Positions 1 through 39,192 of a stretch of 39,192 nucleotides of DNA are shown one piece after another. The DNA lies in the IMG/VR virus record IMGVR_UViG_3300026488_000006, positions 1-39,192 of that record; one strand, 5' to 3'. Numbering within the stretch: position 1 is the first letter of the stretch; every line of letters begins with the position of its first letter. Position numbers and translations under genes: made by a program. The notes beneath the pieces are model-generated. The model did not search any database. It worked only from the letters and a program-made list of their open reading frames with translations, and had not been told where the DNA came from. Source of the DNA: a virus.

Positions 1-127
1 CTGCCGGACCGATGTTCCGGGCCTCGACCTCAAGGCGACCGGTGTTCAGCTCGACGGTAGCAGTCCAACGCCCCACATCGGGCTCAACGTTCACGTCGAG
101 AACCTCAATCTTAAACCGCCTCTTCCT
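1..127. repeat. Terminal direct repeat, copy 1 (identical to 39066-39192); circular-permutation overlap
   Basis: Read directly: nt 1-127 are identical to the last 127 nt of the window. Confidence 0.9.
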
Positions 128-5565: not shown

Positions 5566-5576
5566 CCCGCACCACC

Positions 5577-6314
5577 TCACAGCCACCCCTTCTCGGCCTC
5601 AGCCTCCAGGAAGTCAAGAACCGAGCGGAGGCACTCCTTCAGCTTGGCAACCTTCGCCCGCCTCTGCTGGACCTCCTCGTCGCTCTCGCCGGCGCGCTTC
5701 AGCGTGAGCGTGTCGAGCATCAGCCTGAGGTACTTCGCGTGGGTCCTTGCCTCGTCGAGGCTGTCGCCGTGCACCTGGATGAGGGACTGTCCGTTGAACA
5801 GCACCGCGTCGGCGCCGAAGCGGTAGCCCGCGATGACCACCTCGTCCACGCCCCTGATACCGCTGTCCGGGTCGGCGAAGACCAGGAGCGCGACGGCGCG
5901 GTCGGTGCGGGTGTGTTCATCGAGCTCGACCGGCCCGTGACTACCGGTTAAGCGAAGGCGGTAGATGACTTTCCCGGGCACGGCCACGGCGACGGCCCTG
6001 TCGAGCTCGAACGCCGGGTAGCCGGCCAGCTGGAGCGCCCTGGCGAACACGCGGTTTGGCCCGAGGAGCGTCCAGCCGTACTCTGGGTCGCCCCACTCCT
6101 CGACGAGGCCGGACAGGGACCTTATGAGCTCCCCCAGCGCCTGCTTCGTGAGCGGTAGCCTGTTCTCCTGCCAAAGCGAGCGGAGCTTTTCGGCCAGCTC
6201 GGCCACGCTCTCGCTGTCGGCCACGGCGTCCGCTATGTCGTGGTAGAGCCGGACGAGCTCCGCCCTGTCGGGAATCACTATGTGGTCGAGCTCGTAGCGC
6301 GCCACCTCACGCAC
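5577..6314 (-). CDS. Hypothetical protein (245 aa) immediately upstream of and overlapping the methyltransferase
   Basis: Co-oriented, 3' end overlaps the MTase start; no convincing nuclease motif seen. Confidence 0.55.
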   Translation of the reverse strand: MREVARYELDHIVIPDRAELVRLYHDIADAVADSESVAELAEKLRSLWQENRLPLTKQALGELIRSLSGLVEEWGDPEYGWTLLGPNRVFARALQLAGYPAFELDRAVAVAVPGKVIYRLRLTGSHGPVELDEHTRTDRAVALLVFADPDSGIRGVDEVVIAGYRFGADAVLFNGQSLIQVHGDSLDEARTHAKYLRLMLDTLTLKRAGESDEEVQQRRAKVAKLKECLRSVLDFLEAEAEKGWL

Positions 6315-8749: not shown

Positions 8750-9313
8750 TCAAAGAAAAGGTTGGCGAATGTAAAGGTAGTGGAGCTCGGCTCCTTTATG
8801 AGCCCCAGCGCCAGACTCATTGGCTCCATCCCAACCGAGAATTTGCCTCAGCTTCTCGGAGTCGCCCCAAATGCCCTCGTTCAGAGCCACAGTTCGTATC
8901 TCGGAGGCCTTCTTCAATAGCTTGTCGAACGAGATGTTGCGCTCGCAGACGTGGAGCACGATTTCGCCACCGGCGACCCTTCTGAACTCAACGACCCTCG
9001 GCTCGTTGCTTCTGTCTTGTAGTAAATACTTGCGGTACACCTTGCCATCCTTGGTGAGCTCGATGCAACACTTGTGCCCCCACTGGTATTCGTCGAGCAC
9101 GTACTCTTCAATCCTCGCGTCGTCAGTCTCGTACTGGTTCCAGAACCTTACTAAAGACTCTGCTTTTTCCCTGTCTGAGAATACGGCCAGTATGCGGTAG
9201 TCTGAATACTCGCCCGCCGTGACCACGTACACTTTCTTAGCCGGCGCTTCATTTCTGTTTAGAACTGGGGTGCCGTTCGCACCCTCCCCGACGAGAACCC
9301 GGTACCCCGGCAT
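8750..9313 (-). CDS. Hypothetical protein (187 aa)
   Basis: ATG at 9313 after GGTGATG; TATA-like TTCTTAAATATT upstream on the minus strand. Confidence 0.5.
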   Translation of the reverse strand: MPGYRVLVGEGANGTPVLNRNEAPAKKVYVVTAGEYSDYRILAVFSDREKAESLVRFWNQYETDDARIEEYVLDEYQWGHKCCIELTKDGKVYRKYLLQDRSNEPRVVEFRRVAGGEIVLHVCERNISFDKLLKKASEIRTVALNEGIWGDSEKLRQILGWDGANESGAGAHKGAELHYLYIRQPFL

Positions 9314-20529: not shown

Positions 20530-20967
20530 TCAGAACAAATACTCCTCCTCTTCCTCTACTGGAGCCGGCTGGGTCTCAACCGGAGCCGGGGTGACGGCCA
20601 CGGTAATCGGCTGGGCGACGGGGGCGCTCATAGCGACCTTGTTCCAGGTGAGGCCGAGGTTGCTGGCGACCTTATCGGCGAGCTGGTCGGGCGAAACCTT
20701 GTCGTTAACCCACTCCCAGATTGGCGGGAACAGCGCACCGAAGACAGCGTAGCCCCTCCACTCGGGGTGGCCCATCTTGTCAGCGACCCAGCTCATCAGT
20801 CCGGCGCCAAGGACGTTTCCGAAGTAGCCGAGCCACTTGTTGCCGTTGCCGGCCCTCTCAAGGACGCCACCGATGACGGCGCTGGCGAGGCCGGAGACGG
20901 TCGCGTATCCGAGGCCGACGACGGTCTTCTCCGTGAAGATGTTCTTTATGTCCTCAACAAATCCCAT
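20530..20967 (-). CDS. Putative membrane protein (145 aa) with acidic C-terminal tail
   Basis: Gly/Ala-rich hydrophobic segments; C-terminus EEEEYLF. Confidence 0.55.
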   Translation of the reverse strand: MGFVEDIKNIFTEKTVVGLGYATVSGLASAVIGGVLERAGNGNKWLGYFGNVLGAGLMSWVADKMGHPEWRGYAVFGALFPPIWEWVNDKVSPDQLADKVASNLGLTWNKVAMSAPVAQPITVAVTPAPVETQPAPVEEEEEYLF

Positions 20968-21442: not shown

Positions 21443-21649
21443 CTCAACACCACCTCCAGTGGTTCTTTTTGTTGCCGGGTTTCGGCCCCCGGTAGGGCTC
21501 CCGGTCTCGTTCTCTGTGTATGTTTTTTGCAAAAGAGATATTTATGTCTTTCGCTCCGCAAAACCCGCCCTTTGCAGAAAGCAATGTTTCGCATGTGGTT
21601 GGTCAACGGTTGAGTTTACAAATGTAAAAGAAAAGGTTGCGTGGCACAG

Positions 21650-22721: not shown

Positions 22722-25700
22722 TCACCTCAGCTCCTTCCTCAACTCCGCAACGAACTTTTCATATATCTCGTTGAACGGCCAGGGGAATTCTGGCTCGTAG
22801 CCAAGACTCTTCAGCACCGTCGCGGGCACCACTGCGACCAAGTAGAACATCGTGGGCTCGCAAAGCCAGCCCTTCTCGTTCTCTCCGAGCTCGTCCTCAA
22901 ACTTGACCTGCACCGTGAAGTGGTTGTAGTCCGCCTTGTGGCAAATCTTTCTGTGCTTTCTGAGGAAAGCCAGCACGGCAGTACTGTAAGGCTCGCCCGC
23001 CTTAGCATTCCTCTTCAGCCATGCACGTATGAGGCTCGCAACCTTCCTATATACCTCGTGGATGCCACCCTCGACCAGAGCACCGCCCGCCTGCTCCACA
23101 GCGTATAGCGCCATCGCTTCGGCGAACGTCAGCGGGGCCCTCTTCTTCCTGTCTATGTACTCGCCGATGATGTTCTCCCCGAGCCACTTCTTGAGAAAGT
23201 CGGCATACATGCTGGCGTCCGAGTGAGTCTTGGCCTTCTCCTTAAGGTAGCGCTCAACGCCATACCACAGCATAGCTGAGAGCTCGCGCGGGTCTTCGAG
23301 GGCCCGACTGAGCCACTCCGGCACCTCGCCGAGGTACTGGTAGATGTTCTTTGGCTTCGATAGTTCTTTCCTCCGCTCGACTATCTCAGTTGCTGAAACC
23401 ACCCCACCCGAGCGCTTCTTCATCTCGACCGGGAGCTCTCGGCGCCCGACCTTTTGGTTGTACACACTTGTGGCCAACTTCGAGGCTTCGATGACGGCGC
23501 TGTCGAACGGGAGCTCGCCCTTGGCCACCATATCCGCGAGAACCCATAGGTCGCGCTCGATGTCGGGGAGCACGAAGTCGAGGTCAATGTTGCGCTTGAG
23601 TAGTCTGCGGTCGAGGCTCTTGAGTAGGCGCTCATAGGTGGCTCTAACTTCCTCTGGCACTTCCGGTGCTCTTCTTGGCTCAATCTCTTCGCTTATGGCC
23701 TCTTCTTCCGGCGTCAACTCCTTCACCTCCCTTTCGGCCCTGCGCTCGGGTTTTGCACCCAGCATTTTCTTCGCTTCCTCGACCTTCGCCTTCGGCAACG
23801 CCTTCCGCGCCTCCTTCATCACGATGGCCATCGCCCTCGGCTGGGTGAGCCTGCCTTCATAGACCTCGCGGGCGAGGCGCTCGATGAGCTCAAGCGGGGG
23901 CTCCGGCGGTCTGACATCGTGGAGCTCGAAGTAGCCTTCCCAGGTGTCGGTCAGCTTGCGCCTGATGAAGCGGAGGTCTTCCTCCTCCTGCGTCGCCATC
24001 TCGGCGACTTCTTCGAGCGGGAGCTCCGTCGCCTCGCCGTGCACCTTGACCGGGACCTCAACCTCCTCAAGCGGGGCCCCCTCTTTCTCCCCGGCAATAG
24101 TTCTCACCATGGACTCCTCCGGGATTTCGGCCTTCTGCTTCTCCTCCAGCTCGGCCTCAAGCTCCGGTAGCTCTTCCGGTGCCGGCGGTAAGTATTCCTT
24201 CGCCAGCTCGCGGACGTGGCGTGCCCATTCTTCCGGCGTCATCCCGAGGCGCCTGGCGAACTCTTCATCATTGGCCAACTGCTCGACCACTTCCTCGGCG
24301 CTGGTGGCACCGTACTGCTCCGGGTGCTCAAGGGCGTCGCGGATGTAGTCGTCAACCTGCCTCAGCAACTCGGCCCGCTCTTCCGTCTCAGTTGGCTTGA
24401 GCTTCCACCTCATAACCTCGGCTCCAGCCCTCGCGAGGAGCGCCTCCTCCTTGTTGGTCGGGAGCGTCCGGGCGTAGTGGACGAGCATATCATAGACCGT
24501 ACGGAACGGGTAGTAGTCGAGCTTCTGCCAGTCATAGTCTTCGACCTCGCTCGGGCTGATTGCGCCGAGGAGGACGAGCGTCTTGGCCACGCGCTCCGGC
24601 GTCGGCTTTAGGCCGAGGTAAAAGCCGAGCTGGGCGCGCTCTATTGAGGGCTTCGGCTTCTCCTCGCGGGCGGGCTTAGGCTCTGGCTGTGCGGACTTGG
24701 CAGTCCCCGGGACTTCTCTCGGCTTTTCCACCTTCTTCTTGCATTTTTCCACCTGTGGTGCCAGGAAGCGCTCAAAGTACGTAGTCACCAGCTCCTGTAA
24801 GTAGTTGGCTTTGACAAAGTTTAGGTGGCCGGGCTTGAGCTCGCGACGGACGACGTTGTAATACCCGCGGGCGTTGTCTGAGATGTGGCACACGCCGTTG
24901 GGGTAGTGTTTCTCGGGGTACAAAAACTCCTCACGGACGCCGAACTCGCGCTCAAGGTGGCGGGCGAAAACGTCCCTCGGAGCTGTCTTGGCGAACTCCT
25001 CGACTTGCTTCGTGAGCTCCGGCGTCACGTAGCGGACGTTGTAGTTTGGCTCATAAGACTCCGATTGTTTTGCTAATGCCTCAAGCTCAGCCTTTACTCT
25101 GTTGAGCGTCTCCCGCACGTCTTCCATCTGCTCCTTGAGCTCCTCGTCGCTCACGCGCGGGTTGCCTATCATCCTCCCAAGCACGCGCACCTTCACCTTT
25201 AGCGAGTTCTTAATGGTCGTGCTTAGCTTCCAAGGGAGCTTTTCCGGCAGGTTCTTGCGGAGCTCTTCGTATTCCTTGATTAGCTTCCTGGCCTCTTCCT
25301 CAAGCGCAAGGCGCTTTTCCGCCTCGGTGCCGGCCTTTGACTTAACGCCCAGCCCGCTCGTCAGGTAGCCGACGTATTTGCAGAAGTCCGGCATATTGGC
25401 GTCCTTCCACGTGAAGTTGGAGAGGTACTGGGCGAGGTAGAGTATCTCGCGGTCGAGCGGGTTGGCGCCGTGCCACTTGGGGATTTTTCCACGCTTTATG
25501 TCGGCACAGGCCATATCGAGCGGTATGAGCACGGCTTTGACCGGCTCGACCTTCCCGGCGTTGTAAAGCTTCCACGCCATAGCCGTGAGCGCCATGAGCT
25601 CCCTAAGCTTCTTCAGGCAGTCGTAGGGGCTCCTGCTGTCCCTACACAACTTATCGTAGTCGGTCCTCAATAGGATGAGCTTTCCGCCCGACAGGCACCA

Positions 25701-27761
25701 CCCAAGCTTTTTGCGCTCTATGAACTCACATATCTCGTCCGCCGAGACCTCCGCACCCATCCTGGCCAGCCTGCTCACCAGCCCCGGTAGCGTGTCCCAG
25801 ATTGAGAAGACCGTTGGGCTCTTGTTTAGCTTCTCGTCAATTATCTTCATTAATTCCTCGCGCCAGTCCACCTTTTTCGGACTCAGCCTCTCCAGAACTT
25901 CCTTTGTGAGCTCACGGGCGAGTGAGTGGACGCAGGGAACGTACTTACGCGGGTCTTTTCCACGACCAACCTCACAAACCCCGTCGAGCTCGATGGTCTC
26001 GCCGTTCACCCTTGCGCTCAACGTGATGTAGGCGCCGTGTAACTGCCCCAACCTCATCGTCAGCTCGAAGTCGCCCACCGCCGTCTTGACGAGCCACGTT
26101 TTTTCAGCCTGCGTGTCGCTGTTCCATTCCTTGACTGCCTTCCAGTCCAACGGGGGCTTCCCGGTCTCGTGGAGCACTACCTCGTACACCCCGTCGTAAA
26201 GCGCCTTCCGAGCATTCTTCCATACCTCGTTCCAGGGCTCCTTGAGCTCCGGCGGGTTAAGGCGGACTTCGCCGAACTTCTTTGAGAGGCCGGGAACGTT
26301 CATAGTGCGCTCGATGATTTCGAGGGCGTCGGCGATGGCGTTATCAGTCAGCTTCCTTACCCACGCCTTCCGCTTCGGCGACCAGCGGAACCCGTGCGCC
26401 TTGAGCTCGCGCCTAACCTCTGCCGGCGGGGCGCTCGTAAAGACCACCCAGAGCCTATCGTCGGCGTGGTTAGCAATGATTTTCCAGCCGTCACCCTTGG
26501 CCAACACCTGAACACCGCTTGTCGTGCCCTTGGCCTGCGCTTCTTTTTTCTCTAACTCCTCAATACGGGCCTTGAGGCGCTTTATTTTTTCACCAACACG
26601 GCGGAGCTCAAAGTCGGGGAAACCAATCCTGCCCAGCTCGTCCGGCTCCGGCCAAAAGAAGAAGTGGCCGGCCTCTGCAACTTTAAATGCGCCAATCTCT
26701 TTAAGCTTCCTCTCCTTCTCTTCGGGCGTGAGCTTCTTTGAGCGGATGATTTTGTTCGCTTCCTTCATTATCTCACGGCGCTTTTCGAGTATCGCCAACT
26801 CTTCCTTTAACCTCTCCAGTTCGCCAACGGCCTTTTTGTTCACGGCGCCCTGCTTCAGAGCTTCCTGCTCCTTCTTCAGCTCCTCTGCCAATTTATCAAG
26901 CTTCTTAAAGGCGTTCTTGATGAACTCGTCGAGCGCTGACAGCTTCCTATGTTCAGTCCGCCAGAGCTTTTCGAGCCGGTCTTGGCTCGGCATCCTCGCC
27001 GGCCCAACCACGTGGGCGCTCGGAATTCTCGCCCTCGTCGTTAAGTAGTCCTCATAAAGCTCAATGTAGCGCTTCGAAAAGTTTTGTATCAACCTCTTCG
27101 CCCGTTCGGGGCCGATGAGCGGGCAGAGCTTCTGCACCTTCTCAGCGTAGCGGTTCAGAGTGCGGAGGTAAGAGAGCTGGTCATACTCCGCGTCTTTCTC
27201 CGGGGTCCACGAATTAATAGAATACGCGCCCTTCGCCCGCTCAAACGGGAACGGTGTAACTTTGACGGGGATTATATCAGCCTTCCCGCCATAGTAACAC
27301 TCGATTTCAAGCGTCCAATTGTCCTGAATAAACGGGCCCCGTTCCCGCTTCGCCCTAACAACTGTCAAGATTTTATCAACGGGGCGCTCAAGCTCTTCTA
27401 CAAGAGAGTTCAATTGCGGGAGCTCGGATTTAAGCCTCTCAATAGCACCCTTGAGCTTCTCAACGTCTTCTGGTGTGAATTTATAGCGCCCAATGTCGGC
27501 CTCTCTCATTAAGTCGCGGTAGCGGTCAATGAGCTTATTCACGGCCACCCAGTCCCTCCACAGCCTCAAGAACTCCTCAACGCGCTCTTTCATCCCGGGC
27601 GGGAACTCCTCGCCGGCCTGTCTAATCTCATCTATATGTTCCTTGAGCCATAGGGCGCGGACGTAGTTCTTCATATCCTTTGTTCCCGAGAACCACCCGT
27701 TTTCGGCCCGGATGTCGTTAAACTCCCAGATGAGCTTTTGGACTTCATCGTACAGGTTCAC
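22722..27761 (-). CDS. Giant multidomain protein (1,679 aa) of unknown function
   Basis: Uninterrupted 5 kb ORF; GTG start at 27761 after RBS GGGGGTGGTGGC; coiled-coil-like and highly acidic/basic segments; no Walker A, no polymerase or primase motif that I could confirm. Confidence 0.7.
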   Translation of the reverse strand: MNLYDEVQKLIWEFNDIRAENGWFSGTKDMKNYVRALWLKEHIDEIRQAGEEFPPGMKERVEEFLRLWRDWVAVNKLIDRYRDLMREADIGRYKFTPEDVEKLKGAIERLKSELPQLNSLVEELERPVDKILTVVRAKRERGPFIQDNWTLEIECYYGGKADIIPVKVTPFPFERAKGAYSINSWTPEKDAEYDQLSYLRTLNRYAEKVQKLCPLIGPERAKRLIQNFSKRYIELYEDYLTTRARIPSAHVVGPARMPSQDRLEKLWRTEHRKLSALDEFIKNAFKKLDKLAEELKKEQEALKQGAVNKKAVGELERLKEELAILEKRREIMKEANKIIRSKKLTPEEKERKLKEIGAFKVAEAGHFFFWPEPDELGRIGFPDFELRRVGEKIKRLKARIEELEKKEAQAKGTTSGVQVLAKGDGWKIIANHADDRLWVVFTSAPPAEVRRELKAHGFRWSPKRKAWVRKLTDNAIADALEIIERTMNVPGLSKKFGEVRLNPPELKEPWNEVWKNARKALYDGVYEVVLHETGKPPLDWKAVKEWNSDTQAEKTWLVKTAVGDFELTMRLGQLHGAYITLSARVNGETIELDGVCEVGRGKDPRKYVPCVHSLARELTKEVLERLSPKKVDWREELMKIIDEKLNKSPTVFSIWDTLPGLVSRLARMGAEVSADEICEFIERKKLGWCLSGGKLILLRTDYDKLCRDSRSPYDCLKKLRELMALTAMAWKLYNAGKVEPVKAVLIPLDMACADIKRGKIPKWHGANPLDREILYLAQYLSNFTWKDANMPDFCKYVGYLTSGLGVKSKAGTEAEKRLALEEEARKLIKEYEELRKNLPEKLPWKLSTTIKNSLKVKVRVLGRMIGNPRVSDEELKEQMEDVRETLNRVKAELEALAKQSESYEPNYNVRYVTPELTKQVEEFAKTAPRDVFARHLEREFGVREEFLYPEKHYPNGVCHISDNARGYYNVVRRELKPGHLNFVKANYLQELVTTYFERFLAPQVEKCKKKVEKPREVPGTAKSAQPEPKPAREEKPKPSIERAQLGFYLGLKPTPERVAKTLVLLGAISPSEVEDYDWQKLDYYPFRTVYDMLVHYARTLPTNKEEALLARAGAEVMRWKLKPTETEERAELLRQVDDYIRDALEHPEQYGATSAEEVVEQLANDEEFARRLGMTPEEWARHVRELAKEYLPPAPEELPELEAELEEKQKAEIPEESMVRTIAGEKEGAPLEEVEVPVKVHGEATELPLEEVAEMATQEEEDLRFIRRKLTDTWEGYFELHDVRPPEPPLELIERLAREVYEGRLTQPRAMAIVMKEARKALPKAKVEEAKKMLGAKPERRAEREVKELTPEEEAISEEIEPRRAPEVPEEVRATYERLLKSLDRRLLKRNIDLDFVLPDIERDLWVLADMVAKGELPFDSAVIEASKLATSVYNQKVGRRELPVEMKKRSGGVVSATEIVERRKELSKPKNIYQYLGEVPEWLSRALEDPRELSAMLWYGVERYLKEKAKTHSDASMYADFLKKWLGENIIGEYIDRKKRAPLTFAEAMALYAVEQAGGALVEGGIHEVYRKVASLIRAWLKRNAKAGEPYSTAVLAFLRKHRKICHKADYNHFTVQVKFEDELGENEKGWLCEPTMFYLVAVVPATVLKSLGYEPEFPWPFNEIYEKFVAELRKELR

Positions 27762-27846
27762 GCCACCACCCCCTACTCGACCGCTCCCCGATGTTCGTAG
27801 TTAGGCGCTCGAAGTATAAACCATTTTCGCCGGAGCCACCGAGAAA

Positions 27847-27860
27847 CCTATATAATATTG
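27847..27860 (+). promoter_or_regulatory. TATA-like box (CCTATATAATATTG) for the 27878 gene, probably leaderless
   Basis: AT-rich box about 20 nt upstream of the GTG start, in the divergent intergenic region shared with the giant gene. Confidence 0.4.
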
Positions 27861-27877
27861 TACAACGTATCCCCTAA

Positions 27878-28189
27878 GTGGTGATTAGCGTGCCGTCCCA
27901 CCGCTACCACAAAGCCCTTAACCGGCTCGTGCTCGGCGACGACTGCGAGCCCGTGAACCTCATCAAGGACGCACCCTACCGGCTCTTTCCCGGCAAAAAG
28001 CACCGGCAGTACTTCCACGACCGGGCCACGAACTTCTGGCTCGGCATTCTCCTTGGGCCGAAGGCCTTCCTTGCCGGTGAGCTCCACGACTGGCTGGATA
28101 GGGAGTTCATCGAGGACAGGGAAACGGGCCGGCTCGTCCCGCGAGAAAAGTGGATAACTAAGAGGCGCCGGCGAAAGAAGAGGCGTTAG
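27878..28189 (+). CDS. Hypothetical protein (103 aa) with strongly basic C-terminus (KRRRRKKRR)
   Basis: GTG start just downstream of the TATA-like box; stop overlaps the stop of the convergent gene (TTAG). Confidence 0.5.
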   Translation: MVISVPSHRYHKALNRLVLGDDCEPVNLIKDAPYRLFPGKKHRQYFHDRATNFWLGILLGPKAFLAGELHDWLDREFIEDRETGRLVPREKWITKRRRRKKRR

Positions 28190-28428
28190 CCTTCCTTTTT
28201 CCGGGGCCGGATGATGGCCACGCGCCCCGGCAGGAGGAAAACCTCCAGCTCCTCGCCCGGCTCGTAGAAGCCGAACGGGATAAATACTGCGATGCCCCTG
28301 TCGTTGAACTTCGACGCCTTCCGGATGAGCCTCACACCCTCTTTGTCCTTGATTTTGACCTGCCGAGCGAGCTTCGGCTTCGGTCCTTTCACGATTACCT
28401 TGTCCTGACGAACCTCGACCTCCGTCAT
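28186..28428 (-). CDS. Small basic hypothetical protein (80 aa), possible DNA-binding protein
   Basis: Track ORF 28186..28632; ATG at 28428 after RBS GGGGTGGTGGGA; the longer track ORF runs into promoter DNA. Confidence 0.5.
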   Translation of the reverse strand: MTEVEVRQDKVIVKGPKPKLARQVKIKDKEGVRLIRKASKFNDRGIAVFIPFGFYEPGEELEVFLLPGRVAIIRPRKKEG

Positions 28429-28527
28429 TCCCACCACCCCGATGATGTTTTGTTTAAACGAGTATATAAAGGATTCCCCGGCCGAGCTCGGGAGCGAGCC
28501 GGAGCGATTACTACTGCCCGACGTGCC

Positions 28528-28563
28528 GTTGCAAAAAAGTTGTAAAAACGGCAGATTTTTAAG
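28528..28563 (+). promoter_or_regulatory. Conserved early-promoter element (GTTGCAAAAAAGTTGTAAAAACGGCAG plus TATA-like ATTTTTAAGG)
   Basis: 24 of 27 nt identical to 29887-29913; same distance (57-58 nt) from motif end to the start codon. Confidence 0.5.
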
Positions 28564-28611
28564 GTCTAAACTGCTAATATATTTTGAAGAACGCAAAGGT
28601 GGTGGTGAAAA

Positions 28612-28800
28612 ATGGCGAAGGAAAGAATACACCTCGGATGGGCTTCTGTGGACGTGGAGAGGTACGCAGTGAAGGGAAAAGACGGTAGGTGGTATATCAG
28701 ACAGCAGAGCAACCGTGCGGGAGACCCTGGGTACATGATAGCGGTTGTCAGGACGAGGGAAGAAGTCGAAAAGTACAGGATTGGTGAGGTGAGAGCATGA
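28612..28800 (+). CDS. Small hypothetical protein (62 aa)
   Basis: RBS AGGTGGTGGTGA before ATG; first gene of the plus-strand operon. Confidence 0.55.
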   Translation: MAKERIHLGWASVDVERYAVKGKDGRWYIRQQSNRAGDPGYMIAVVRTREEVEKYRIGEVRA

Positions 28801-29102
28801 GCGTCGAGCGCGTGACGGACGCCCTTGTGGATGCCTACCAGCTTCTCGACCTCTCCGAGCGCCTCATCGAGGAGCTCGAAAGCGCCCCGCTCTCCGAGCT
28901 CCCGCGCCTACTTCAGTTTTTGAAAAAGAACATCCGCGACGCGAAGGCGCTGATAAACGACGCCGAGGCCGAGCTCGACAAGACGGTCAGGGAGCTCGAT
29001 GAGGCAGAGGTGAAAGACCTACTCGTTGATATGGAGGTTGAAGAAACCAGGCGCTACGAGGCGCTCGCGAGGGAAGCTGACCGCGCGGGGGTGATGTTAT
29101 GA
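28797..29102 (+). CDS. Hypothetical acidic coiled-coil protein (101 aa)
   Basis: RBS GGTGAGGTGAGAGC; ATGA start/stop overlap. Confidence 0.55.
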   Translation: MSVERVTDALVDAYQLLDLSERLIEELESAPLSELPRLLQFLKKNIRDAKALINDAEAELDKTVRELDEAEVKDLLVDMEVEETRRYEALAREADRAGVML

Positions 29103-29335
29103 AGCTGGTCATAACCATAGCCGACGAGCTGGACGAGTGGTTTTCAAAAATGAGCTTCAAAATCGAGAAGGACGGCAAAACGATACTTAACGACGAGATG
29201 ACCAACTGGGACAACTCAGCGTTTGAGGAATGGTTGGTGGATATGTTTGTGGAGGTTCTGAAGAACTTAAAAGAAGTGGATGAATGGGCCTTTAAGAAGG
29301 CCCTTCAGCGCTTCGTCGGAGGTGATGGACAATGA
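29099..29335 (+). CDS. Hypothetical protein (78 aa)
   Basis: RBS GGGGGTGATG; ATGA overlap. Confidence 0.55.
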   Translation: MKLVITIADELDEWFSKMSFKIEKDGKTILNDEMTNWDNSAFEEWLVDMFVEVLKNLKEVDEWAFKKALQRFVGGDGQ

Positions 29336-29535
29336 AGGTCACGAAAGTTGAGCGCTTTAAGAGGACCTCACGGGTCTGGTTCGACGACGGCACAATCGCG
29401 ATAATCTACGACCTCGGCGGGAAGGACTGGGCGAGCGTCATCACGGCGGACAAAAAAGACATCACGGCGACGCAGAGGGGGCGCGCCTACCTGGCTGAGG
29501 CATACCGCGCCCTAGCGGAGGAGGTGGGCGTATGA
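29332..29535 (+). CDS. Hypothetical protein (67 aa)
   Basis: RBS GGAGGTGATGG; ATGA overlap. Confidence 0.55.
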   Translation: MKVTKVERFKRTSRVWFDDGTIAIIYDLGGKDWASVITADKKDITATQRGRAYLAEAYRALAEEVGV

Positions 29536-29687
29536 GGTGGGTGGTCATCTCCCGCGACCGCGAGCTCAAGGTCGAGACAGCGACGAACCAAAAGGAGGCA
29601 TTATTTAGGCAGAAGCTCCACCGCAACGCCCTCGCCCTACCAGTCCGCGAGGTCCCAACTCTTATCCACCTCCTCCAGCACCTTTGA
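29532..29687 (+). CDS. Small hypothetical protein (51 aa)
   Basis: Not in the ORF track. RBS GGAGGTGGG before ATG; ATGA overlap with upstream stop; followed by an oligo-T tract. Confidence 0.4.
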   Translation: MRWVVISRDRELKVETATNQKEALFRQKLHRNALALPVREVPTLIHLLQHL

Positions 29688-29688
29688 A

Positions 29689-29747
29689 CCTTCTTTTTTT
29701 CGCCCGCTTTATAACCCGGTTATAATTTCTCACAACCGGGTTTTGCC
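29689..29747 (+). terminator. Terminator-like element: oligo-T plus palindrome TTATAACCCGGTTATAA and AACCGGGTTTTGCC
   Basis: T9 run immediately after the operon's last stop; about 80 percent identical to 30326-30382. Confidence 0.45.
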
Positions 29748-29886
29748 TGGGGGGCTACATATATACTACATATAATTCCACGCCCCAAGTTTCACCACGA
29801 TAACTTAGTTTTAGCAGTTGATAACTCGGTTATGTCGCGTGAGTTTCTGACGCGACTCCGAGGCGCTCTCAGACGCGAGAACTTTG

Positions 29887-29932
29887 TTGCAAAAAAGTTT
29901 CAAAAACGGAAGGTTTATATATGTGTTTAAAC
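29887..29932 (+). promoter_or_regulatory. Conserved early-promoter element, second copy (GTTGCAAAAAAGTTTCAAAAACGGAAG plus TATA-like GTTTATATATG and GTTTAAAC)
   Basis: See 28528-28563. Confidence 0.5.
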
Positions 29933-29969
29933 ATAAGAGAGAACGAAGAATGTGATAGAGGTGGTCGTG

Positions 29970-30323
29970 ATGGAGAAGGTGAGAATCATACCGCACAGGT
30001 TTGAGGACAAGGAAGAGTACATCAACGCCCTCGTCGGGACCTGGAAGCGCAACTGGGAAATCTTCAAGAAGGAGCACCCGCGCGTCGCTAAGCGCTTTGA
30101 GGAGGCAGTCGAGAAGTACGGCGGTATGGATACTATGCTTAGGAAGTTCGCAGAAGACATAGCTTTTGACAAGCGGAGGACGAGGGTTCAGGTTCCCCTC
30201 ACATGCAGAAGATACTTATACAATGACTACGGTATGAGCATCAAGTTCTACGACGACGGCGACATCGTGTATGCGAGGGGCTCAATCAGCTCAAGCGTCC
30301 GCGACATCCTGGGTGTTTGCTGA
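29970..30323 (+). CDS. Hypothetical protein (about 117 aa)
   Basis: Track ORF 29952..30323; ATG at 29970 after RBS GAGGTGG. Confidence 0.55.
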   Translation: MEKVRIIPHRFEDKEEYINALVGTWKRNWEIFKKEHPRVAKRFEEAVEKYGGMDTMLRKFAEDIAFDKRRTRVQVPLTCRRYLYNDYGMSIKFYDDGDIVYARGSISSSVRDILGVC

Positions 30324-30325
30324 CC

Positions 30326-30382
30326 CTTCTTTTTTCGCCCGCCTTATAACTCGGTTATAGCTTTTCTTAACTCGGTTTTGCC
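30326..30382 (+). terminator. Terminator-like element, second copy: oligo-T plus palindrome TTATAACTCGGTTATAG and AACTCGGTTTTGCC
   Basis: Immediately after the stop of 29970..30323; homologous to 29689-29747. Confidence 0.45.
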
Positions 30383-30512
30383 AAGGAAGGACACGTAACC
30401 CTCACCCCCAACTCTATGTTTAAACTCCCGCAACCCCGACCTTTACAGATGCAAAACCTTAAATACCCCTTTTGCAAAAATCTTATACGAACAACGTCAA
30501 GGGGGTGGCACT

Positions 30513-31598
30513 GTGGACGACGAGGAAAAGCGCGAGAAGGCCGGGGAAAACCGCCCCGACGACTTCAGCGAGCTCGACGACCTTTTAGAAGCCCTTATGG
30601 GCGCCGAGGAGGTGGCAGAAGACAGCCAAAGCGAGGAACCACCCGACGACGCCAAAGAACCACCCGCCGAACCCAAACACAGAAAGTACGCCCCAAACCC
30701 GTACAGCAAAATCAAAGACATCCCCGAAGACTTCCTCACGTTCCTCCTTGAGACGGACGCGAAGTGGGCAAAGCGCAAGCTGTGGCGCGGAATCATCAGA
30801 AGCATCTACGAGAACCCGCGCGCGCACTCGACAGACATTGCCAAGCTCCTCGACACGACGCCCTCCACCGTCATGCGCACCGCCGAGCGATATAGGGCTA
30901 TGTGGAACGAGCTTCGCGAGGACTACGAGGAGTGGAAGCGGAAGCTTGAGGAAGGCGTCCCGGGCGAGTTAGAGTCGAAGCTCCCACCAACCAAAGCCCC
31001 TTCCCCACAGCCGGCCCCGGAGCCGGCGCCGAAGAAGCGTGGGGGCTCGAAGAGCTCTACGGGTGGCGAGAAAGAAGAAAAAATCCCGCAGAAGCTCTAC
31101 GAGTTCACCAAGAGCACGACGACCTTCAAAGAGATTGATAAGACGCTTAGCGAAGTGCTCGGTGCTCAGTTCCACGATACGGCGGTTAGAAAGGAAGTTT
31201 ACGCCCGGCTCGGCGAACTGCTGATTTTCAGCCTCCTCCAGCTCGGTGTGGTCGAGCGTGATAAAATAGTCGCCTACTCTGAACAGCTCTCGACCGACCC
31301 GGACAGGCTCTACGAGTACGTCAAAAACCAGCTCGACGCCGTTCTCCGCTTAACCGACGCCGAGACGCTCCAGCGCGTCTGGGTCGAGCTAACCGCGCTC
31401 AGGCGCCAGGTCAGGGCACTCGAAGCGACCGCCGACATGCTCAGCGACACGCTAAAAGAGTACGAGGACGCCATCCGGTTCCTCATGGGTCTTCTCACGC
31501 GCGACCAGCTCGAAAAGTTCTCCGCGTATGTGTTTATGAAGGAGTTTATGAAGCAGTACGCGCCCCTGCAGGGCGCCGTTCCTGGAGGTGGTAGATGA
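30513..31598 (+). CDS. Hypothetical protein (361 aa) with acidic N-terminus and a helix-turn-helix-like segment; possible transcription regulator
   Basis: RBS GGGGGTGG before GTG; segment RAHSTDIAKLLDTTPSTVMRTAERYRAMWNE resembles an HTH; C-terminal codons form the next gene's RBS. Confidence 0.55.
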   Translation: MDDEEKREKAGENRPDDFSELDDLLEALMGAEEVAEDSQSEEPPDDAKEPPAEPKHRKYAPNPYSKIKDIPEDFLTFLLETDAKWAKRKLWRGIIRSIYENPRAHSTDIAKLLDTTPSTVMRTAERYRAMWNELREDYEEWKRKLEEGVPGELESKLPPTKAPSPQPAPEPAPKKRGGSKSSTGGEKEEKIPQKLYEFTKSTTTFKEIDKTLSEVLGAQFHDTAVRKEVYARLGELLIFSLLQLGVVERDKIVAYSEQLSTDPDRLYEYVKNQLDAVLRLTDAETLQRVWVELTALRRQVRALEATADMLSDTLKEYEDAIRFLMGLLTRDQLEKFSAYVFMKEFMKQYAPLQGAVPGGGR

Positions 31599-34771: not shown

Positions 34772-34939
34772 ATGGCGAGGCGCGACACCACCGCAATCCT
34801 CAAACGGCTAAAAAAGCGCCTCGACCGGGCGAGAAAAGCCCTCCTCGTTGAGGACAGCGCCACGGCGCTGGAGCACGTGGATTGGGCAATCCTTGAGCTC
34901 GAAGAGCTCGCCGAAGAAAGTGCGGAGGTGGGAGAGTGA
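34772..34939 (+). CDS. Small hypothetical protein (about 55 aa)
   Basis: Track ORF 34754..34939; ATG at 34772 after RBS GGGGGTGAG. Confidence 0.45.
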   Translation: MARRDTTAILKRLKKRLDRARKALLVEDSATALEHVDWAILELEELAEESAEVGE

Positions 34940-35295
34940 TACCGCCGAGCTGGGCCTACGGGATAAGTACGGGAAGCCTGCTAACGATGCTACTCGGCGT
35001 CCTCCTCGGGGCGACGCTCGGGACCATCATCGGCACCGAGATTGCTTACCGGCGCACCGAGCGGTGGCTACGAAAGCTCCTAACAGACAAAGAGTTTCAG
35101 AACCTCGCCGTCGGCTGGCTCAAGCGGACGGCTCAGCAGTTCGAGAACGAGTACGTGAAACCGAAAATCGAAAGCGAGGAGTTCCGCGAGCTCGTCAGGA
35201 AGGCGAAAGAACAGGCAATGCAGGCGCTCCTCGGGCCGGGCGAGCCCCCAACCGACGTGCCGAGCCTTGATGACTTCGTAGGGGGTGAGGGGTGA
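34936..35295 (+). CDS. Membrane protein (119 aa) with N-terminal TM helix
   Basis: RBS GGAGGTGGGAGA before GTG; hydrophobic N-terminus LLTMLLGVLLGATLGTIIG. Confidence 0.55.
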   Translation: MIPPSWAYGISTGSLLTMLLGVLLGATLGTIIGTEIAYRRTERWLRKLLTDKEFQNLAVGWLKRTAQQFENEYVKPKIESEEFRELVRKAKEQAMQALLGPGEPPTDVPSLDDFVGGEG

Positions 35296-35507
35296 TGGAC
35301 GTTGCCTTGTTAGCCGAGGTGTTGACGGCCATCCTGGCCGTCGTGAGCTTCCTCCTTGGAGCGAAGTGGAGGAAGGCAAAAGCCGTGCTCCGCGACCTCG
35401 CGAAGGCCCTCGAAGACACGTACCAAGCCCTCGAAGACGACAAGCTGACAAAGGAAGAGCTCAAGCAGTTGATAAAAGACTGGAAAAAAGTGCTGGAGAA
35501 CGTTTAG
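35295..35507 (+). CDS. Small membrane protein (about 70 aa), TM helix plus coiled coil
   Basis: ATG at 35295 after RBS GGGGGTGAGGGGTG; last gene of the plus operon. Confidence 0.5.
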   Translation: MDVALLAEVLTAILAVVSFLLGAKWRKAKAVLRDLAKALEDTYQALEDDKLTKEELKQLIKDWKKVLENV

Positions 35508-35788
35508 GCCCAGCCCCCGCCGTTTGGGCCGGGCCACTCCGGGCGGAGCCGTACTGGCTCCACCGCCCCTCTTTTTAGGAGCACGCCCCAGACGCCAGGG
35601 GGCATAGCGTTGGCCGTCACGAGGTCGCCCTTTCTGAACGGCCCGCGCGGGCCGTCCGGCGTCATAATGCCTTCTGGAAAGTCCATGAGGAACCGGTAGG
35701 CCCACTGCGGGGCCGGGCGCTCAGTTCTCGCCGTCCTGGCCTTCGGCCTCGCCTTCACCCAGCCGAGGAGGCTCGCCTGTGCCACCAC
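35504..35788 (-). CDS. Hypothetical protein (94 aa), last gene of the origin-spanning minus operon
   Basis: GTG start just after the upstream stop; its stop overlaps the stop of the convergent plus-strand gene. Confidence 0.45.
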   Translation of the reverse strand: MVAQASLLGWVKARPKARTARTERPAPQWAYRFLMDFPEGIMTPDGPRGPFRKGDLVTANAMPPGVWGVLLKRGAVEPVRLRPEWPGPNGGGWA

Positions 35789-35791
35789 CCA

Positions 35792-35956
35792 TCACCCCCT
35801 CTCTCCGCTCTGCTCGCCGGGCGTGAAAAGAACGAAAGGCCGAAAGTCGGGCGCCGGGAAGGTGATTACTGCCCCGCAGTGCGGGCAGTGAACCGGGCGG
35901 TGGATGTCCTCGACCTCGAAGGGCTGTCCGCAGTAAGGACAACGGACGCGCATCAT
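35792..35956 (-). CDS. Zinc-ribbon protein (about 54 aa)
   Basis: Track ORF 35792..36001; ATG at 35956 after RBS GGAGGGGGT; two CxxC pairs (CPYCG ... CPHCG). Confidence 0.5.
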   Translation of the reverse strand: MMRVRCPYCGQPFEVEDIHRPVHCPHCGAVITFPAPDFRPFVLFTPGEQSGERG

Positions 35957-36249
35957 TTTGCCGACCCCCTCCACCTCATCATCCTCCGTAGCTTTCTCCA
36001 AACAGGGATTGTTTCTCTACTCATATAGTTTCTTTTAGCGAGCCACTCTTTGAACTTCTCGTCACACTCCTCGTCTTCATCAAGGAAGTCGAGTAGTTGA
36101 AGGACTTCCTTATATCTGCCGTACTTCCGCCACACGGCCCACAAGACTTGAGCTCCGAGCCATACCATGAATGCCACAAGCGCCCACGCAAGCGCCGTTA
36201 GCACGGCGAAGCCGGTGTAGGTCCAGATAGTTTCAATGCTCACGGCCAT
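35953..36249 (-). CDS. Small membrane protein (about 98 aa)
   Basis: Track ORF 35953..36324; ATG at 36249 inside a 19-bp sequence also found at the dpdA-like start; hydrophobic helices. Confidence 0.5.
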   Translation of the reverse strand: MAVSIETIWTYTGFAVLTALAWALVAFMVWLGAQVLWAVWRKYGRYKEVLQLLDFLDEDEECDEKFKEWLAKRNYMSRETIPVWRKLRRMMRWRGSAK

Positions 36250-36320: not shown

Positions 36321-37130
36321 TCACACATTCGAAATCACCTCAGTAAGGCTTTTCTGACGGGAGTTTTGGAACCCATCTAATAACCGAACCCAATGGAGTA
36401 CTCTCTGTCGTATCTGCATCCAGATAGGCTTAGAGTTCTTCACGCGGTCAATACCATACCTATATGCCAAACTGTCCGCCGAGTAAAGAGCTTCTCTCAC
36501 GTCAGGATACCTGAGCACTCCAAACTTTACTCCAAAAGCGTGCAACTTAACCCTCCTTGGTGTCGCTTCTCTTATTGCGAGTATGTATCTCCGTATTTGC
36601 GGTTCTTGCCCGCGCCGGCACATTGTGCCGAGGCCGAGAAGTTCAGTCAGGAGACCATGCTCCTTCATATAATCGAGCATCCAGAGATAGTCGTCAAGCG
36701 CCCACCCCTGCAATACTGCCACAAAGTGCTTCTTAAGTTCAGGATACTGGTCGTCAATTAGATTCTGAATTACAATCTGGTTTTCTATCGTTTTCATCTG
36801 ATTTTCTCGAACCGTGCGACCCCACTTCTTGCGGACTTCCGGTTCGCACGGATAATCCCTATTCGCAAAGAGGACATTCTCAAAGCGTCCAGAATTGAGC
36901 TGACGAAGGACAAACTCAAGGTAGCGCTCGTGTGGGTCCGGGTATTCTTGCATGCGGTAAAAAAAGCTGAAGCCTCCGCTGTCAATGAACAACCAGCTTG
37001 TGTTCCTAGGTGGGGTTCTAACTCTGGAAGCATAGTTAATCATAACATTGAACTTGCGCGGAGCGAGGCTTTCAAATGCCTTTTTTGCTGAACCATCCCC
37101 CACACCAAAAAAGAAACTAAACACGGCCAT
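36321..37130 (-). CDS. TGT-family transglycosylase, DpdA-like (7-deazaguanine DNA transglycosylase candidate)
   Basis: Motif WLFIDSGGFSFF matches the tRNA-guanine transglycosylase active-site motif (E. coli Tgt ILTDSGGFQVF); downstream blocks align loosely with TGT (VAVLQG, LLGLGTM, YSADSL); no CxCxxC...H zinc site. Track ORF 36321..37271 starts at a TTG; ATG at 37130 follows RBS AGGAAGGAGCGTG. Confidence 0.7.
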   Translation of the reverse strand: MAVFSFFFGVGDGSAKKAFESLAPRKFNVMINYASRVRTPPRNTSWLFIDSGGFSFFYRMQEYPDPHERYLEFVLRQLNSGRFENVLFANRDYPCEPEVRKKWGRTVRENQMKTIENQIVIQNLIDDQYPELKKHFVAVLQGWALDDYLWMLDYMKEHGLLTELLGLGTMCRRGQEPQIRRYILAIREATPRRVKLHAFGVKFGVLRYPDVREALYSADSLAYRYGIDRVKNSKPIWMQIRQRVLHWVRLLDGFQNSRQKSLTEVISNV

Positions 37131-37296
37131 CACGCTCCTTCCTAAGTGTTGCAATAAAGCACTCGTCGAAAAACTCACAAGCTTCACAGAGCGAGTCGCC
37201 CTGAAAGTCTCCAAAGCAAGGCGGTAGTTCCTCAGCGCCCTCATTGTCGAATTCGCCCCAAACCTCTCCAAAAACCGTTATGAGAACCTTAGCCAC
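37117..37296 (-). CDS. Small Cys-rich protein (59 aa), possible metal-binding
   Basis: Not in the ORF track. GTG start after RBS GGGGGTGACGGGGC, directly after the upstream stop; C-x11-C-x2-C-x5-C; overlaps the dpdA-like start by 14 nt in another frame. Confidence 0.35.
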   Translation of the reverse strand: MAKVLITVFGEVWGEFDNEGAEELPPCFGDFQGDSLCEACEFFDECFIATLRKERDGRV

Positions 37297-37891: not shown

Positions 37892-38395
37892 TTATCCTTC
37901 AACCATTATCCAACGCTCCCGGCGGGCGTACTGCGGGAGCATGACGCGAACCCACCACTCGACGAAGGCCCAAGGCACGTGGTAGCCCTTTCCCGGGACG
38001 TAGAAGTCGCGGGGCTCGTAGCCGTTGCGGTAGCACCACCACTTAAAGTCGTTGCGGAGCGTGTATTCGCCGACGACGTGACGGTAGCGCCTCATCAGCT
38101 CGCTGAGCTTCACGCGCCGGCCCTCGCAGAGCGCATACTCGGTCACGAGGTCAAAGTGCCTATCTGGCTCAGTCGGCGTCCGCTCGTCAACCAGCATCTC
38201 CTCGTAGCGCACCTTTGCCCAGAAGTGGTTCTTGAGCCAGTGCTTTTCGAGGGCGTCAATGTAGTGGTAGGCCGTGTGCACCTGGTAGCCTCTGACGAGC
38301 CACAGGTAGGCAAAGTAGGGGCCGGCCCGGACGAGCCAGCCGTGGCGGAGGGTTAGTCGCTTAAACTTACCCATAGACACCACCCTGCGAGCCAC
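37892..38395 (-). CDS. Trp/Tyr-rich hypothetical protein (about 160 aa)
   Basis: RBS GGAGGTGG upstream; true start probably the ATG of MGKFKRL. Confidence 0.5.
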   Translation of the reverse strand: MARRVVSMGKFKRLTLRHGWLVRAGPYFAYLWLVRGYQVHTAYHYIDALEKHWLKNHFWAKVRYEEMLVDERTPTEPDRHFDLVTEYALCEGRRVKLSELMRRYRHVVGEYTLRNDFKWWCYRNGYEPRDFYVPGKGYHVPWAFVEWWVRVMLPQYARRERWIMVEG

Positions 38396-38472
38396 CTCCT
38401 TCGGTAGAACTTATGTTTAAACTTATTAAAAGCTTTGCGGTTGGGGAATGCAAAGGTAGGATTTTGCAAAAG

Positions 38473-39192
38473 TCAATGCTCGGGGTAAGCCACGACTAAA
38501 AACGGGCCGACGCACCAAGTGTCGAGGAGCGCGAACTCGTAAACCGGCGTGTAGCCGGCCCTCTCGCCGACACGGCGGACTATCTCCTCGGCCTCTTCGA
38601 GGTCGTCGGCCCAGCCCTCGTACTCCTCGCCGGAGACCGTGTTCTTCACCACGATGCGGTAGCCAGCCGGCTTTTGCTTTTTGAACCGGCGCATCTTCTC
38701 CCAGCGCTCCGGCCAGGTCTTCCTCCACTCTGCCTCGCGCTTCTGCCACTCCGAGAGGTCGCCAGTGCGTTTCTCGTTGCGCGGGAGCTGGACGCGCTTT
38801 GAAAGGGCTTTCATCACCATCGCCAGCGCAAACGGGCCGAGCTCCCTGTTGAAAAAGCGGACGCGGACGAAGGCACCGGGGCGCTCAGCAACGAAAAAGT
38901 ACGCGACCTTTGGGTCGTCGGGCAGGGTGGCACCTTCCCTCACGAGCTCGTCCCAGAGCTCGTCGCGACCTGAGCGGAGCTTCCAGCCGGCGAAGTGCCT
39001 CAGCCCAATGCCCAAAAGCGGGCCGAGCCCCTGCCTGTTCATACCCAACAATAGCTTTTCGGCTTCTGCCGGACCGATGTTCCGGGCCTCGACCTCAAGG
39101 CGACCGGTGTTCAGCTCGACGGTAGCAGTCCAACGCCCCACATCGGGCTCAACGTTCACGTCGAGAACCTCAATCTTAAACCGCCTCTTCCT
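38473..39192 (-). CDS. Hypothetical protein (about 241 aa), wraps across the window boundary
   Basis: Track ORF 38473..39159 starts at a GTG; in circular coordinates an in-frame ATG at the position equivalent to 131-133 follows a strong RBS (GGAGGTGATTTA) just after the helicase stop. The first two codons lie outside the window end but are present at 128-133. Confidence 0.55.
   Translation of the reverse strand, partial: RKRRFKIEVLDVNVEPDVGRWTATVELNTGRLEVEARNIGPAEAEKLLLGMNRQGLGPLLGIGLRHFAGWKLRSGRDELWDELVREGATLPDDPKVAYFFVAERPGAFVRVRFFNRELGPFALAMVMKALSKRVQLPRNEKRTGDLSEWQKREAEWRKTWPERWEKMRRFKKQKPAGYRIVVKNTVSGEEYEGWADDLEEAEEIVRRVGERAGYTPVYEFALLDTWCVGPFLVVAYPEH
39066..39192. repeat. Terminal direct repeat, copy 2 (identical to 1-127)
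   Basis: Read directly; implies a unit length of about 39,065 bp. Confidence 0.9.

Follow-up and report, generated by a model that had tools for sequence, protein, structure and literature searches.

What coordinates the promoters of small, variable genes in archaeal mobile elements is the question raised by a 39,192-nucleotide stretch of viral DNA (IMG/VR record IMGVR_UViG_3300026488_000006, positions 1 to 39,192; hereafter the window), in which the original prediction singled out two near-identical 27-bp elements ahead of plus-strand genes and took them for a regulator-binding site common to several promoters. The ends of the window (1-127 and 39066-39192) are an identical 127 bases, probably the k-mer length of the assembler, which makes the contig complete and circular at ~39,065 bp; the window is thus a complete circular element that belongs to a Thermococcus-associated virus or plasmid-like family. 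Homologues of its open reading frame (ORF) 30513-31598 are found in hydrothermal-vent metagenomes and in metagenome-assembled genomes (MAGs) labelled Thermococcus sp., the MAG 'Thermococcus sp. 4561-380' bins near-identical fragments of the window element, and the window genes have strong Shine-Dalgarno (SD) sequences of the GGTGGT type. To our knowledge, there has been essentially no study of how transcription is controlled in Thermococcales viruses.

The two elements are real: the copies at 28528-28554 and 29886-29912 (the first exactly where it had been placed, the second shifted by one base from the proposed 29887-29913) are identical in 24 of 27 positions, and a degenerate search with up to three mismatches recovers just these two sites in the genome and none in 100 shuffles. 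Each stops 57 nt short of a start codon that has a strong SD (ATG 28612 and ATG 29970), close to the 57-58 nt originally given. As had been claimed, a TATA-like box comes next, ATTTTTAAGG after copy 1 and GTTTATATAT after copy 2. The exact core TTGCAAAAA is present at four sites (21524, minus strand; 28529, 29887 and 30472, plus strand) vs 0.19 expected, and the 10-bp palindrome TTTTGCAAAA in three exact copies (21525-21534, 30470-30479, 38462-38471) vs 0.02 expected, the first and last of which account for the core occurrences predicted at 21523-21535 and 38461-38472. When both strands are searched for TTGCAAAA, five places are found, all within the intergenic 10.6% of the genome, so that the expected intergenic enrichment of the motif is borne out; in related loci with called genes, every TTGCAAAA site is likewise intergenic.

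Two features go beyond the first reading of these elements: the last 6 nt of the 27-mer are a transcription factor B recognition element (BRE), and, apart from one flanking base, the remaining 20 bp (predicted at about -57 to -38) form a tandem with an 11-bp period. The tandem reads TTGCAAAAAA-n-TTnCAAAAA, its two units lying one helical turn apart: unit 1, (T)TTGCAAAAA, contains the invariant TTGCA, and unit 2 is the degenerate TTnCAAAAA, which usually starts with TTTCA or TTGTA. Comparison with loci obtained through homologues of the helix-turn-helix (HTH) protein encoded by 30513-31598 (L003, L007, L010, L012 and L148, with a partial copy in L146) yields 14 non-redundant cassettes of this type, hereafter class I, across six related vent-metagenome elements; the window has two (P1 and P2) and L012 up to four. 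Numbered from the first T of TTGCA, positions T1, T2, G3, C4, A5, A8, T13, A16-A19, C21, G22 and A25 are invariant in all 14, the spacing from TTGCA to the TATA box is free of indels throughout, and information content collapses directly 5' of TTGCA. In none of the 14 does the tandem overlap the BRE or the TATA box, unit 2 running up to the base that directly precedes the BRE, and all have CG[AG][AC]A[G] followed by nTTTATAw. Further downstream, a conserved TA lies ~11 nt 5' of T/GAAG (the slash marking the pyrimidine/purine start), which itself is ~30 nt after the beginning of the TATA box, and a GGTGGT-type SD is located 5-10 nt before the start codon. These positions match the Thermococcus promoter consensus for BRE, TATA box, proximal promoter element (PPE) and start (PMC5316973). 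In that consensus, an 8-bp A/T-rich TATA box is centred near -27 right behind an A-rich BRE, the PPE is A/T at about -10, a pyrimidine at -1 precedes a purine at +1, and the 5' untranslated region contains a GGDGRD SD. Judged by their sequence, P1 and P2 are canonical strong Thermococcales promoters, complete with BRE, TATA box, A/T-rich -10 region, pyrimidine/purine start and SD. The BREs of the window (CGGCA and CGGAA vs the Pyrococcus BRE consensus VRAAA (PMC5937170)) and, in P1, ATTTTTAA are sub-consensus. The idea of a regulator site common to several promoters fits the fixed BRE/TATA spacing in 14 promoters of six elements; the part of it that named the binder gains no support, as discussed below.

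Downstream of the cassettes lie small genes that, one case excepted, are mutually unrelated. Given that these downstream genes are mostly non-homologous, the conserved unit is the cassette rather than an orthologous locus.

Is the tandem, then, simply a part of every strong promoter in this group? Within the same elements, the motif is missing from other promoters, among them that of the giant gene of the window (region 27762-27889, with BRE and TATA box present and TTGCAA absent) and from the HTH-gene promoters of L007, L010 and L012. The low-GC sister lineage L144/L005 (44% GC, as against 51-57% in the tandem-positive loci) has the core cassette AAGCGAAAAC-TTTATATA...TTTGAA...SD three times, never with the tandem. 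A promoter with its 5' untranslated region (UTR) in the 103-kb T. nautili 33-3 plasmid (NZ_OX281346.1, 28429-28492; L149, 20001-20064) reads ccgaaaagTTTATATAc...cgaagaac...ggaggtgg and is 75% identical over 64 nt to the cassette consensus, again minus the tandem, and a position weight matrix scan of 40 kb around this promoter gave no tandem either. Thus, a core promoter/5' UTR design appears to be common to Thermococcus mobile elements, and the tandem is an add-on specific to one class of promoter instead of a general feature, because L144 and the T. nautili plasmid keep the same core promoter without it. No motif was found in L006, a distant relative. Two stretches of L144 (3019-3183 and 4231-4457) have T(T/C)GCATGTTTTA(A/G)CA(G/A)(C/T)ATGCAAA repeated upstream of some promoters, an inverted pair of TTGCA-like half-sites with wider spacing.

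A scan of one genome from each of 185,579 species with the pattern TTGCAA-N5-TT-N2-AAAA-N-CG-N3-G-N-TTT returned 96 places, three of them in Thermococcales, and all three are fragments of the window's element in one MAG; the cassette at its fixed BRE/TATA spacing is absent from every Thermococcales host chromosome scanned. In IMG/VR, a first pattern scan gave 35 hits, essentially all in unrelated AT-rich contigs, probably bacterial phages, and a stricter one gave a single chance hit. The 5-kb motif region has no DNA match in the phage and plasmid collections, and the searchable literature contains no description of the motif or of its architecture. Taken together, comparison of these sequences supports the view that the tandem is a promoter-linked cis-element under selection and an undescribed regulatory site. 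A separate case is L026 (IMGVR_UViG_3300022188_000052; 25 kb, 36% GC), an otherwise unrelated contig with a phage tail-tube protein gene, where 9130-9270 holds two divergent promoters, each with a TTGCAA tandem, CG(T/A)AA(A/G) and a TATA box at nearly the class I spacing; if the host of L026 is archaeal, this suggests that a host factor reads the element.

The third promoter that had been grouped with these two, P3, does contain the core, but its architecture is different: the core is located 3' rather than 5' of the TATA box. P3 drives the conserved HTH-protein operon, and its sequence (30442-30496) is 71% similar over 55 nt to that of the promoter of the long minus-strand operon at 21.5 kb (21508-21562), with identical TATA-N3-palindrome spacing. 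In this second type, which we denote class II, the palindrome occupies part of the interval that separates the TATA box from the predicted start (~30489 for P3, ~21505 for the minus-strand promoter), at about -19 to -10. The distant relative L144 has a TATA box followed by TTTTGCAA before the orthologue of the structural operon. In archaea, a site upstream of the BRE is in the usual position of an activator site, and one downstream of the TATA box in that of a repressor site (PMC5937170).

Other repeats of operator-like appearance accompany these promoters. A 60-nt repeat, 80% identical between its copies at 29688-29747 and 30323-30382, is located immediately 3' of the stop codons that close the P1 operon and the P2 gene, and 29816-29831 belongs with it; it consists, in order, of an oligo-T terminator, the palindrome TTATAAC-N3-GTTATAA and AACyCGGTTTTGCC, and is probably a second type of operator. 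TAACYSGGTT is present at four places vs 0.2 expected. The 8-bp palindrome GTTTAAAC occurs five times (3761, 28452, 29925, 30418, 38415) vs 0.33 expected; at 28452, in the minus-strand promoter of an 80-aa gene, and at 29925, in P2, it lies three bases past a TATA box, as TTTTGCAAAA does in class II, and GTTATAAC occupies the equivalent place in L012. This palindrome may act as a third operator, or else as a second TATA box.

How could one motif serve both classes? We give about even chances to the hypothesis that the tandem is the site of a sequence-specific regulator whose effect depends on its position. One sequence-specific protein, probably a dimer because the single sites are palindromic, would bind both the tandem and the palindromes, with unit 1 as the strong site and unit 2 as a weaker, cooperative one. 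At -57 to -38, beside the BRE, the bound protein would make contact with TFB/TBP and so determine how active the accessory-gene promoters are. We favour stimulation as its probable effect there, since none of the 14 cassettes has an indel in this spacing and the BREs of the window fall short of consensus. At -19 to -10, in the class II promoters, it would prevent the recruitment of RNA polymerase and so repress the two core operons. A site for a sequence-specific protein is preferred to A-tract curvature because the tandem has invariant non-A bases, the palindrome recurs exactly, only a subset of promoters is involved, and the spacing is rigid.

An elaboration of this hypothesis, which we consider unlikely, makes the tandem a virus-borne upstream activating sequence (UAS) for a host factor and, joined to the BRE-TATA-5' UTR unit, part of a portable high-expression cassette placed by this virus family before freely exchanged accessory genes, possibly anti-defence ones, with the same factor shutting the conserved replication and structural operons through the palindromes, which would amount to a two-state switch. 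P1 and P2 drive small variable ORFs, and regions of this kind have been suggested to hold anti-defence genes (PMC12934983); 'early' expression of the P1 and P2 genes, as originally proposed, is plausible by analogy, their small variable genes being no more than suggestive of it. The divergent pair of cassettes in L026, a head-tailed virus contig, is a hint that one host factor may serve unrelated viruses.

Several observations weigh against a position-dependent regulator. Known archaeal activators usually serve promoters with a weak BRE/TATA, and L003, L007, L010 and L148 already have the consensus CGAAAG with TTTATATA, so that activation may be unnecessary at such consensus-strength promoters. 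The element is rich in A-tracts and may have a purely structural role. The class II site is missing from the HTH-gene promoters of L007, L010 and L012, and no binding protein for the tandem was found among the candidates encoded by the element. Finally, the genome scan, with its fixed spacing, is blind to host regulon sites in other geometries.

The main rival is a single repressor of the immunity or shut-off type acting on all TTGCAA sites, the tandem occluding TFB and the palindromes blocking RNA polymerase; otherwise constitutively strong promoters would thereby be silenced late in infection or during a carrier state. The consensus-strength core promoters of the relatives, which need no activator, agree with this scheme, as do the class II sites in the classical repressor position and the combination of a strong site with a weaker one by the BRE, which is like cooperative operator designs; 11-bp tandem repeats are reportedly also the sites of the SSV1 F55 repressor. 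However, we regard such a repressor as doubtful, given that the tandem overlaps neither BRE nor TATA box in any of the 14 copies, that indel-free helical phasing is more typical of stereospecific contact than of occlusion, and that no gene for a ribbon-helix-helix (RHH), AbrB or other repressor was confirmed, the MazE/AbrB match of the 80-aa protein in Pfam having E=0.31. Dispensing with a dedicated protein altogether, the tandem could be a factor-independent upstream promoter element, whose phased A-tracts boost or insulate strong promoters via curvature, histone exclusion or contact with the basal machinery, with the TTTTGCAAAA palindromes being unrelated AT-rich sequence. The A5-A6 tracts are indeed 11 bp apart and fixed in phase relative to the TATA box, no binder was found, and the motif does not vary between elements with proteins less than 40% identical, as a determinant belonging to the host or the basal machinery would be. 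Nevertheless, all 14 cassettes keep the non-A bases TTGC and TT, of which curvature alone has no need; the same 8-10-mer turns up again, in the form of an exact palindrome, in three further promoters (3 vs 0.02 expected); the equally canonical promoters of L144 and the T. nautili plasmid do without the tandem; and the motif is absent from all host chromosomes scanned, all of which renders a factor-free element quite improbable.

The hypothesis to which we assign the least credence, a very slight one, is that the motif is an evolutionary by-product, i.e., that a portable promoter cassette has spread before accessory genes by duplication or recombination, with TTGCAA as a recombination boundary or a hitch-hiker devoid of regulatory function. 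The same cassette does stand before non-homologous small genes, 2-4 times per element and often just past an oligo-T terminator, and L012 and L003 each contain whole cassettes that are almost identical to one another, 5' UTR included. Between elements, though, the cassettes diverge at many positions but never in TTGCA, TT, AAAA or length, which points to purifying selection instead of recent copying, and the palindromic sites are left unexplained. A replication iteron or centromere was also considered and rejected: there are just two units, and they are always welded to the BRE/TATA.

Which protein could bind the tandem? The original prediction put forward the HTH protein 30513-31598, whose N-terminal winged HTH gives a weak Pfam match below the curated cutoff, homologues having precomputed HTH_24/MarR annotations. 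The putative recognition helix is PSTVMRT in the window, PTTVKRA in L007, YSHARKT in L010 and YTTIHRA in L012, whereas all four have the identical DNA motif; the helix of the tandem-less L144, YPTVHKA, is near that of L012. The comparison thus argues against the HTH protein as the tandem binder: its recognition helix does not covary with the motif, and this candidate is unsupported, although a basic pair shared at helix positions 5-6 leaves it some probability. The divergently oriented 80-aa gene (28186-28428), which has a positional counterpart in L012, looks AbrB-like by eye, a likeness left unconfirmed by the marginal Pfam match given above, an AlphaFold2 (AF2) predicted local distance difference test (pLDDT) score of 60 and no significant fold match in Foldseek. 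The 62-aa product of the first P1 gene gave no lead either, with a lone homologue among 5.8 billion proteins (the L012 counterpart, at 89% identity), an AF2 pLDDT of 79 and no fold match. The 100-aa protein 27890-28189 (+) is among the most conserved of the family (61-76% identity in most related loci), with invariant H/D/E motifs (PSHxxH, PGKKHR, HD, LHDW) and a tail of poly-Arg/Lys; it matches nothing in Pfam, has five database homologues in all, and was rejected as a binder, its His/Asp motifs looking enzyme-like by eye. Clustering of all ORFs yielded no family specific to the tandem-positive ones, and no RHH/CopG match to Pfam was obtained among the 30 window proteins scanned, many small ORFs being unannotated. 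A host factor is slightly favoured over an element-encoded one, given that the motif is invariant across elements with proteins 36-60% identical and that the tandem is lost in a lineage of different GC content. The coordinates of the promoter features, and of four small conserved ORFs, are collected in Table 1.

Table 1. Parts of the class I cassette and features located in the window
Feature	Position (strand)	Sequence or content	Remarks
Class I cassette	cassette 1-10	TTGCAAAAAA	
Class I cassette	cassette 11	n	
Class I cassette	cassette 12-20	TTnCAAAAA	
Class I cassette, BRE	cassette 21-26	CGAAAG	window: CGGCAG / CGGAAG
Class I cassette	cassette 27	n	
Class I cassette, TATA box	cassette 28-35	TTTATAwr	
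Class I cassette, -10 PPE position	cassette ~47-50	conserved TA-containing segment	
Class I cassette, start	cassette 57-61	T/GAAG	pyrimidine/purine start
Class I cassette, downstream end		SD, then start codon	start codon 73-83 nt from position 1
P1 upstream tandem	28529..28548 (+)	TTGCAAAAAA-G-TTGTAAAAA	predicted -57 to -38
P1 BRE-like hexamer	28549..28554 (+)	CGGCAG	CGAAAG in relatives
P1 TATA box	28555..28564 (+)	ATTTTTAAGG	predicted start ~G28586 (T-1/G+1 in TGAAGAAC); SD GGTGGTGGTG; ATG 28612
P2 upstream tandem	29887..29906 (+)	TTGCAAAAAA-G-TTTCAAAAA	
P2 BRE-like hexamer	29907..29912 (+)	CGGAAG	
P2 TATA box	29913..29922 (+)	GTTTATATAT	predicted start ~G29945; SD GAGGTGGTCGTG; ATG 29970
P3 (class II)	30451..30479 (+)	BRE-like GCAAAAC; TATA TTAAATAC 30459-30466; CCC; palindrome TTTTGCAAAA 30470-30479	drives GTG 30513
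Class II promoter, long minus-strand operon	21525..21553 (-)	BRE CGAAAG 21553-21548; TATA ATAAATAT 21545-21538; CTC; TTTTGCAAAA 21534-21525	
Third TTTTGCAAAA palindrome	38462..38471 (-)	TTTTGCAAAA	~30-40 bp upstream of TATA-like boxes (38422-38432 / GTTTAAAC 38415-38422) of gene 37892-38374 (-)
Small conserved ORFs	34772-34939 (+), 34936-35295 (+), 35504-35788 (-), 35792-35974 (-)		homologues in related elements

The rest of the element is sparsely annotated: very few window proteins match Pfam or PHROGs, and neither Rfam families nor tRNAs were found in the window. The annotated ones include a UvrD-like helicase, an N6/N4 DNA methylase (4336-5580, minus strand) and a homologue of DpdA, of the DNA 7-deazaguanine modification family (36321-37271, minus strand), the latter two suggesting self-modification of the element's DNA, possibly against restriction. 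In the giant protein of 1679 aa (22722-27761, minus strand), residues ~170-484 alone find matches, to a 'primase' PHROG and ArdC/YodL-like regions of distant bacterial conjugative plasmids and phages, and the remainder is unannotated. The GC-rich region 34772-35974, gene-free at first sight, is coding, since its four small ORFs have homologues in 4-7 related elements. The second gene of the class II-promoter operon at 21.5 kb encodes a hydrophobic 145-aa protein (20530-20967, minus strand) that is 57% identical to its L144 counterpart; searches of the phage collection and of IMG/VR returned neither matches nor relatives, respectively, and a by-eye resemblance to the alpha-helical hairpin capsid proteins of spindle-shaped archaeal viruses was not confirmed. 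A repeat cluster at 3824-4233 contains TGAAGACAAAA..TTCTCACGAAGACACGTAAT twice as a 74-nt direct repeat (88% identical), along with inverted copies (51-nt arms, 96%), the 20-mer TTCTCACGAAGACACGTAAT being present three times, and looks like a replication origin or another protein-binding array; the related GAAGGACACGTAAC is found upstream of P3, at ~30383-30398. IMG/VR holds one related contig. Many new families of Thermococcales viruses from similar samples are catalogued in a 2026 preprint that offers no promoter analysis and whose main text lacks the words 'promoter' and 'transcription' (PMC12934983).

A 20-bp element with invariant bases, fixed geometry and natural tandem-less controls provides a handle on how accessory genes and core operons are coordinated. 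It could also be used as bait to fish out an undescribed archaeal transcription factor or, in Thermococcus genetics, as a compact promoter module.

Among known systems, the closest in layout are the archaeal UASs (the TFB-RF1 site TRBM of Pyrococcus/Thermococcus, that of Ptr2 in Methanocaldococcus and that of GvpE in Halobacterium), which are likewise bipartite, ~20 bp long and set immediately 5' of the BRE/TATA at a fixed distance. The BREs of the window are sub-consensus like those of activator promoters, whereas most relatives, unlike these, have a consensus BRE/TATA; the tandem, moreover, is carried by a mobile element and the UASs by host genes. TRBM is the 13-nt palindrome TCTGAANTTCAGA upstream of a weak BRE (PMC5937170). 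Its sequence differs completely from that of the tandem, which is therefore not a TFB-RF1 site. The dual placement of the motif resembles that in the SurR and TrmBL1 systems of Thermococcales, where one motif activates when 5' of the BRE/TATA and represses when 3' of the TATA box, but the likeness is one of logic only. SurR recognizes GTTn3AAC(n5GTT), and TrmBL1/Tgr the TGM motif TATCACN5GTGATA; neither GTTn3AAC nor TATCACN5GTGATA is present in the element, so both regulators were discarded.

The F55 operators of SSV1, of the fusellovirus type, are reportedly 11-bp tandem direct repeats that coordinate a set of transcripts from several early viral promoters, to which the window is alike in its 11-bp period at two promoters. 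The F55 sites are said to overlap the TATA/BRE and the transcription start, whereas the window tandem abuts the BRE without overlap, and no RHH protein was detected among the window proteins scanned. Lrp/FFRP boxes, such as the Ss-LrpB box TTGYAWWWWWTRCAA, are 13-15-bp palindromes with 5-bp arms; this assignment was rejected, since a box with TTGCA...TGCAA arms would cover 17 bp in this element, and TTTCA or TTGTA is the usual form of unit 2. A bacterial sigma-70 promoter or UP element (TTGACA-17-TATAAT) was dismissed as well, with no sigma-70-like site in 27700-30600. The generic strong promoter of Thermococcales, consisting of BRE, TATA box, PPE, initiator and SD and exemplified by the T. 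nautili 33-3 plasmid, matches the cassette from CGAAAG to the start codon and differs in having no tandem. A regulator site that abuts an archaeal BRE/TATA is of a known kind; this motif and its architecture appear to be new.

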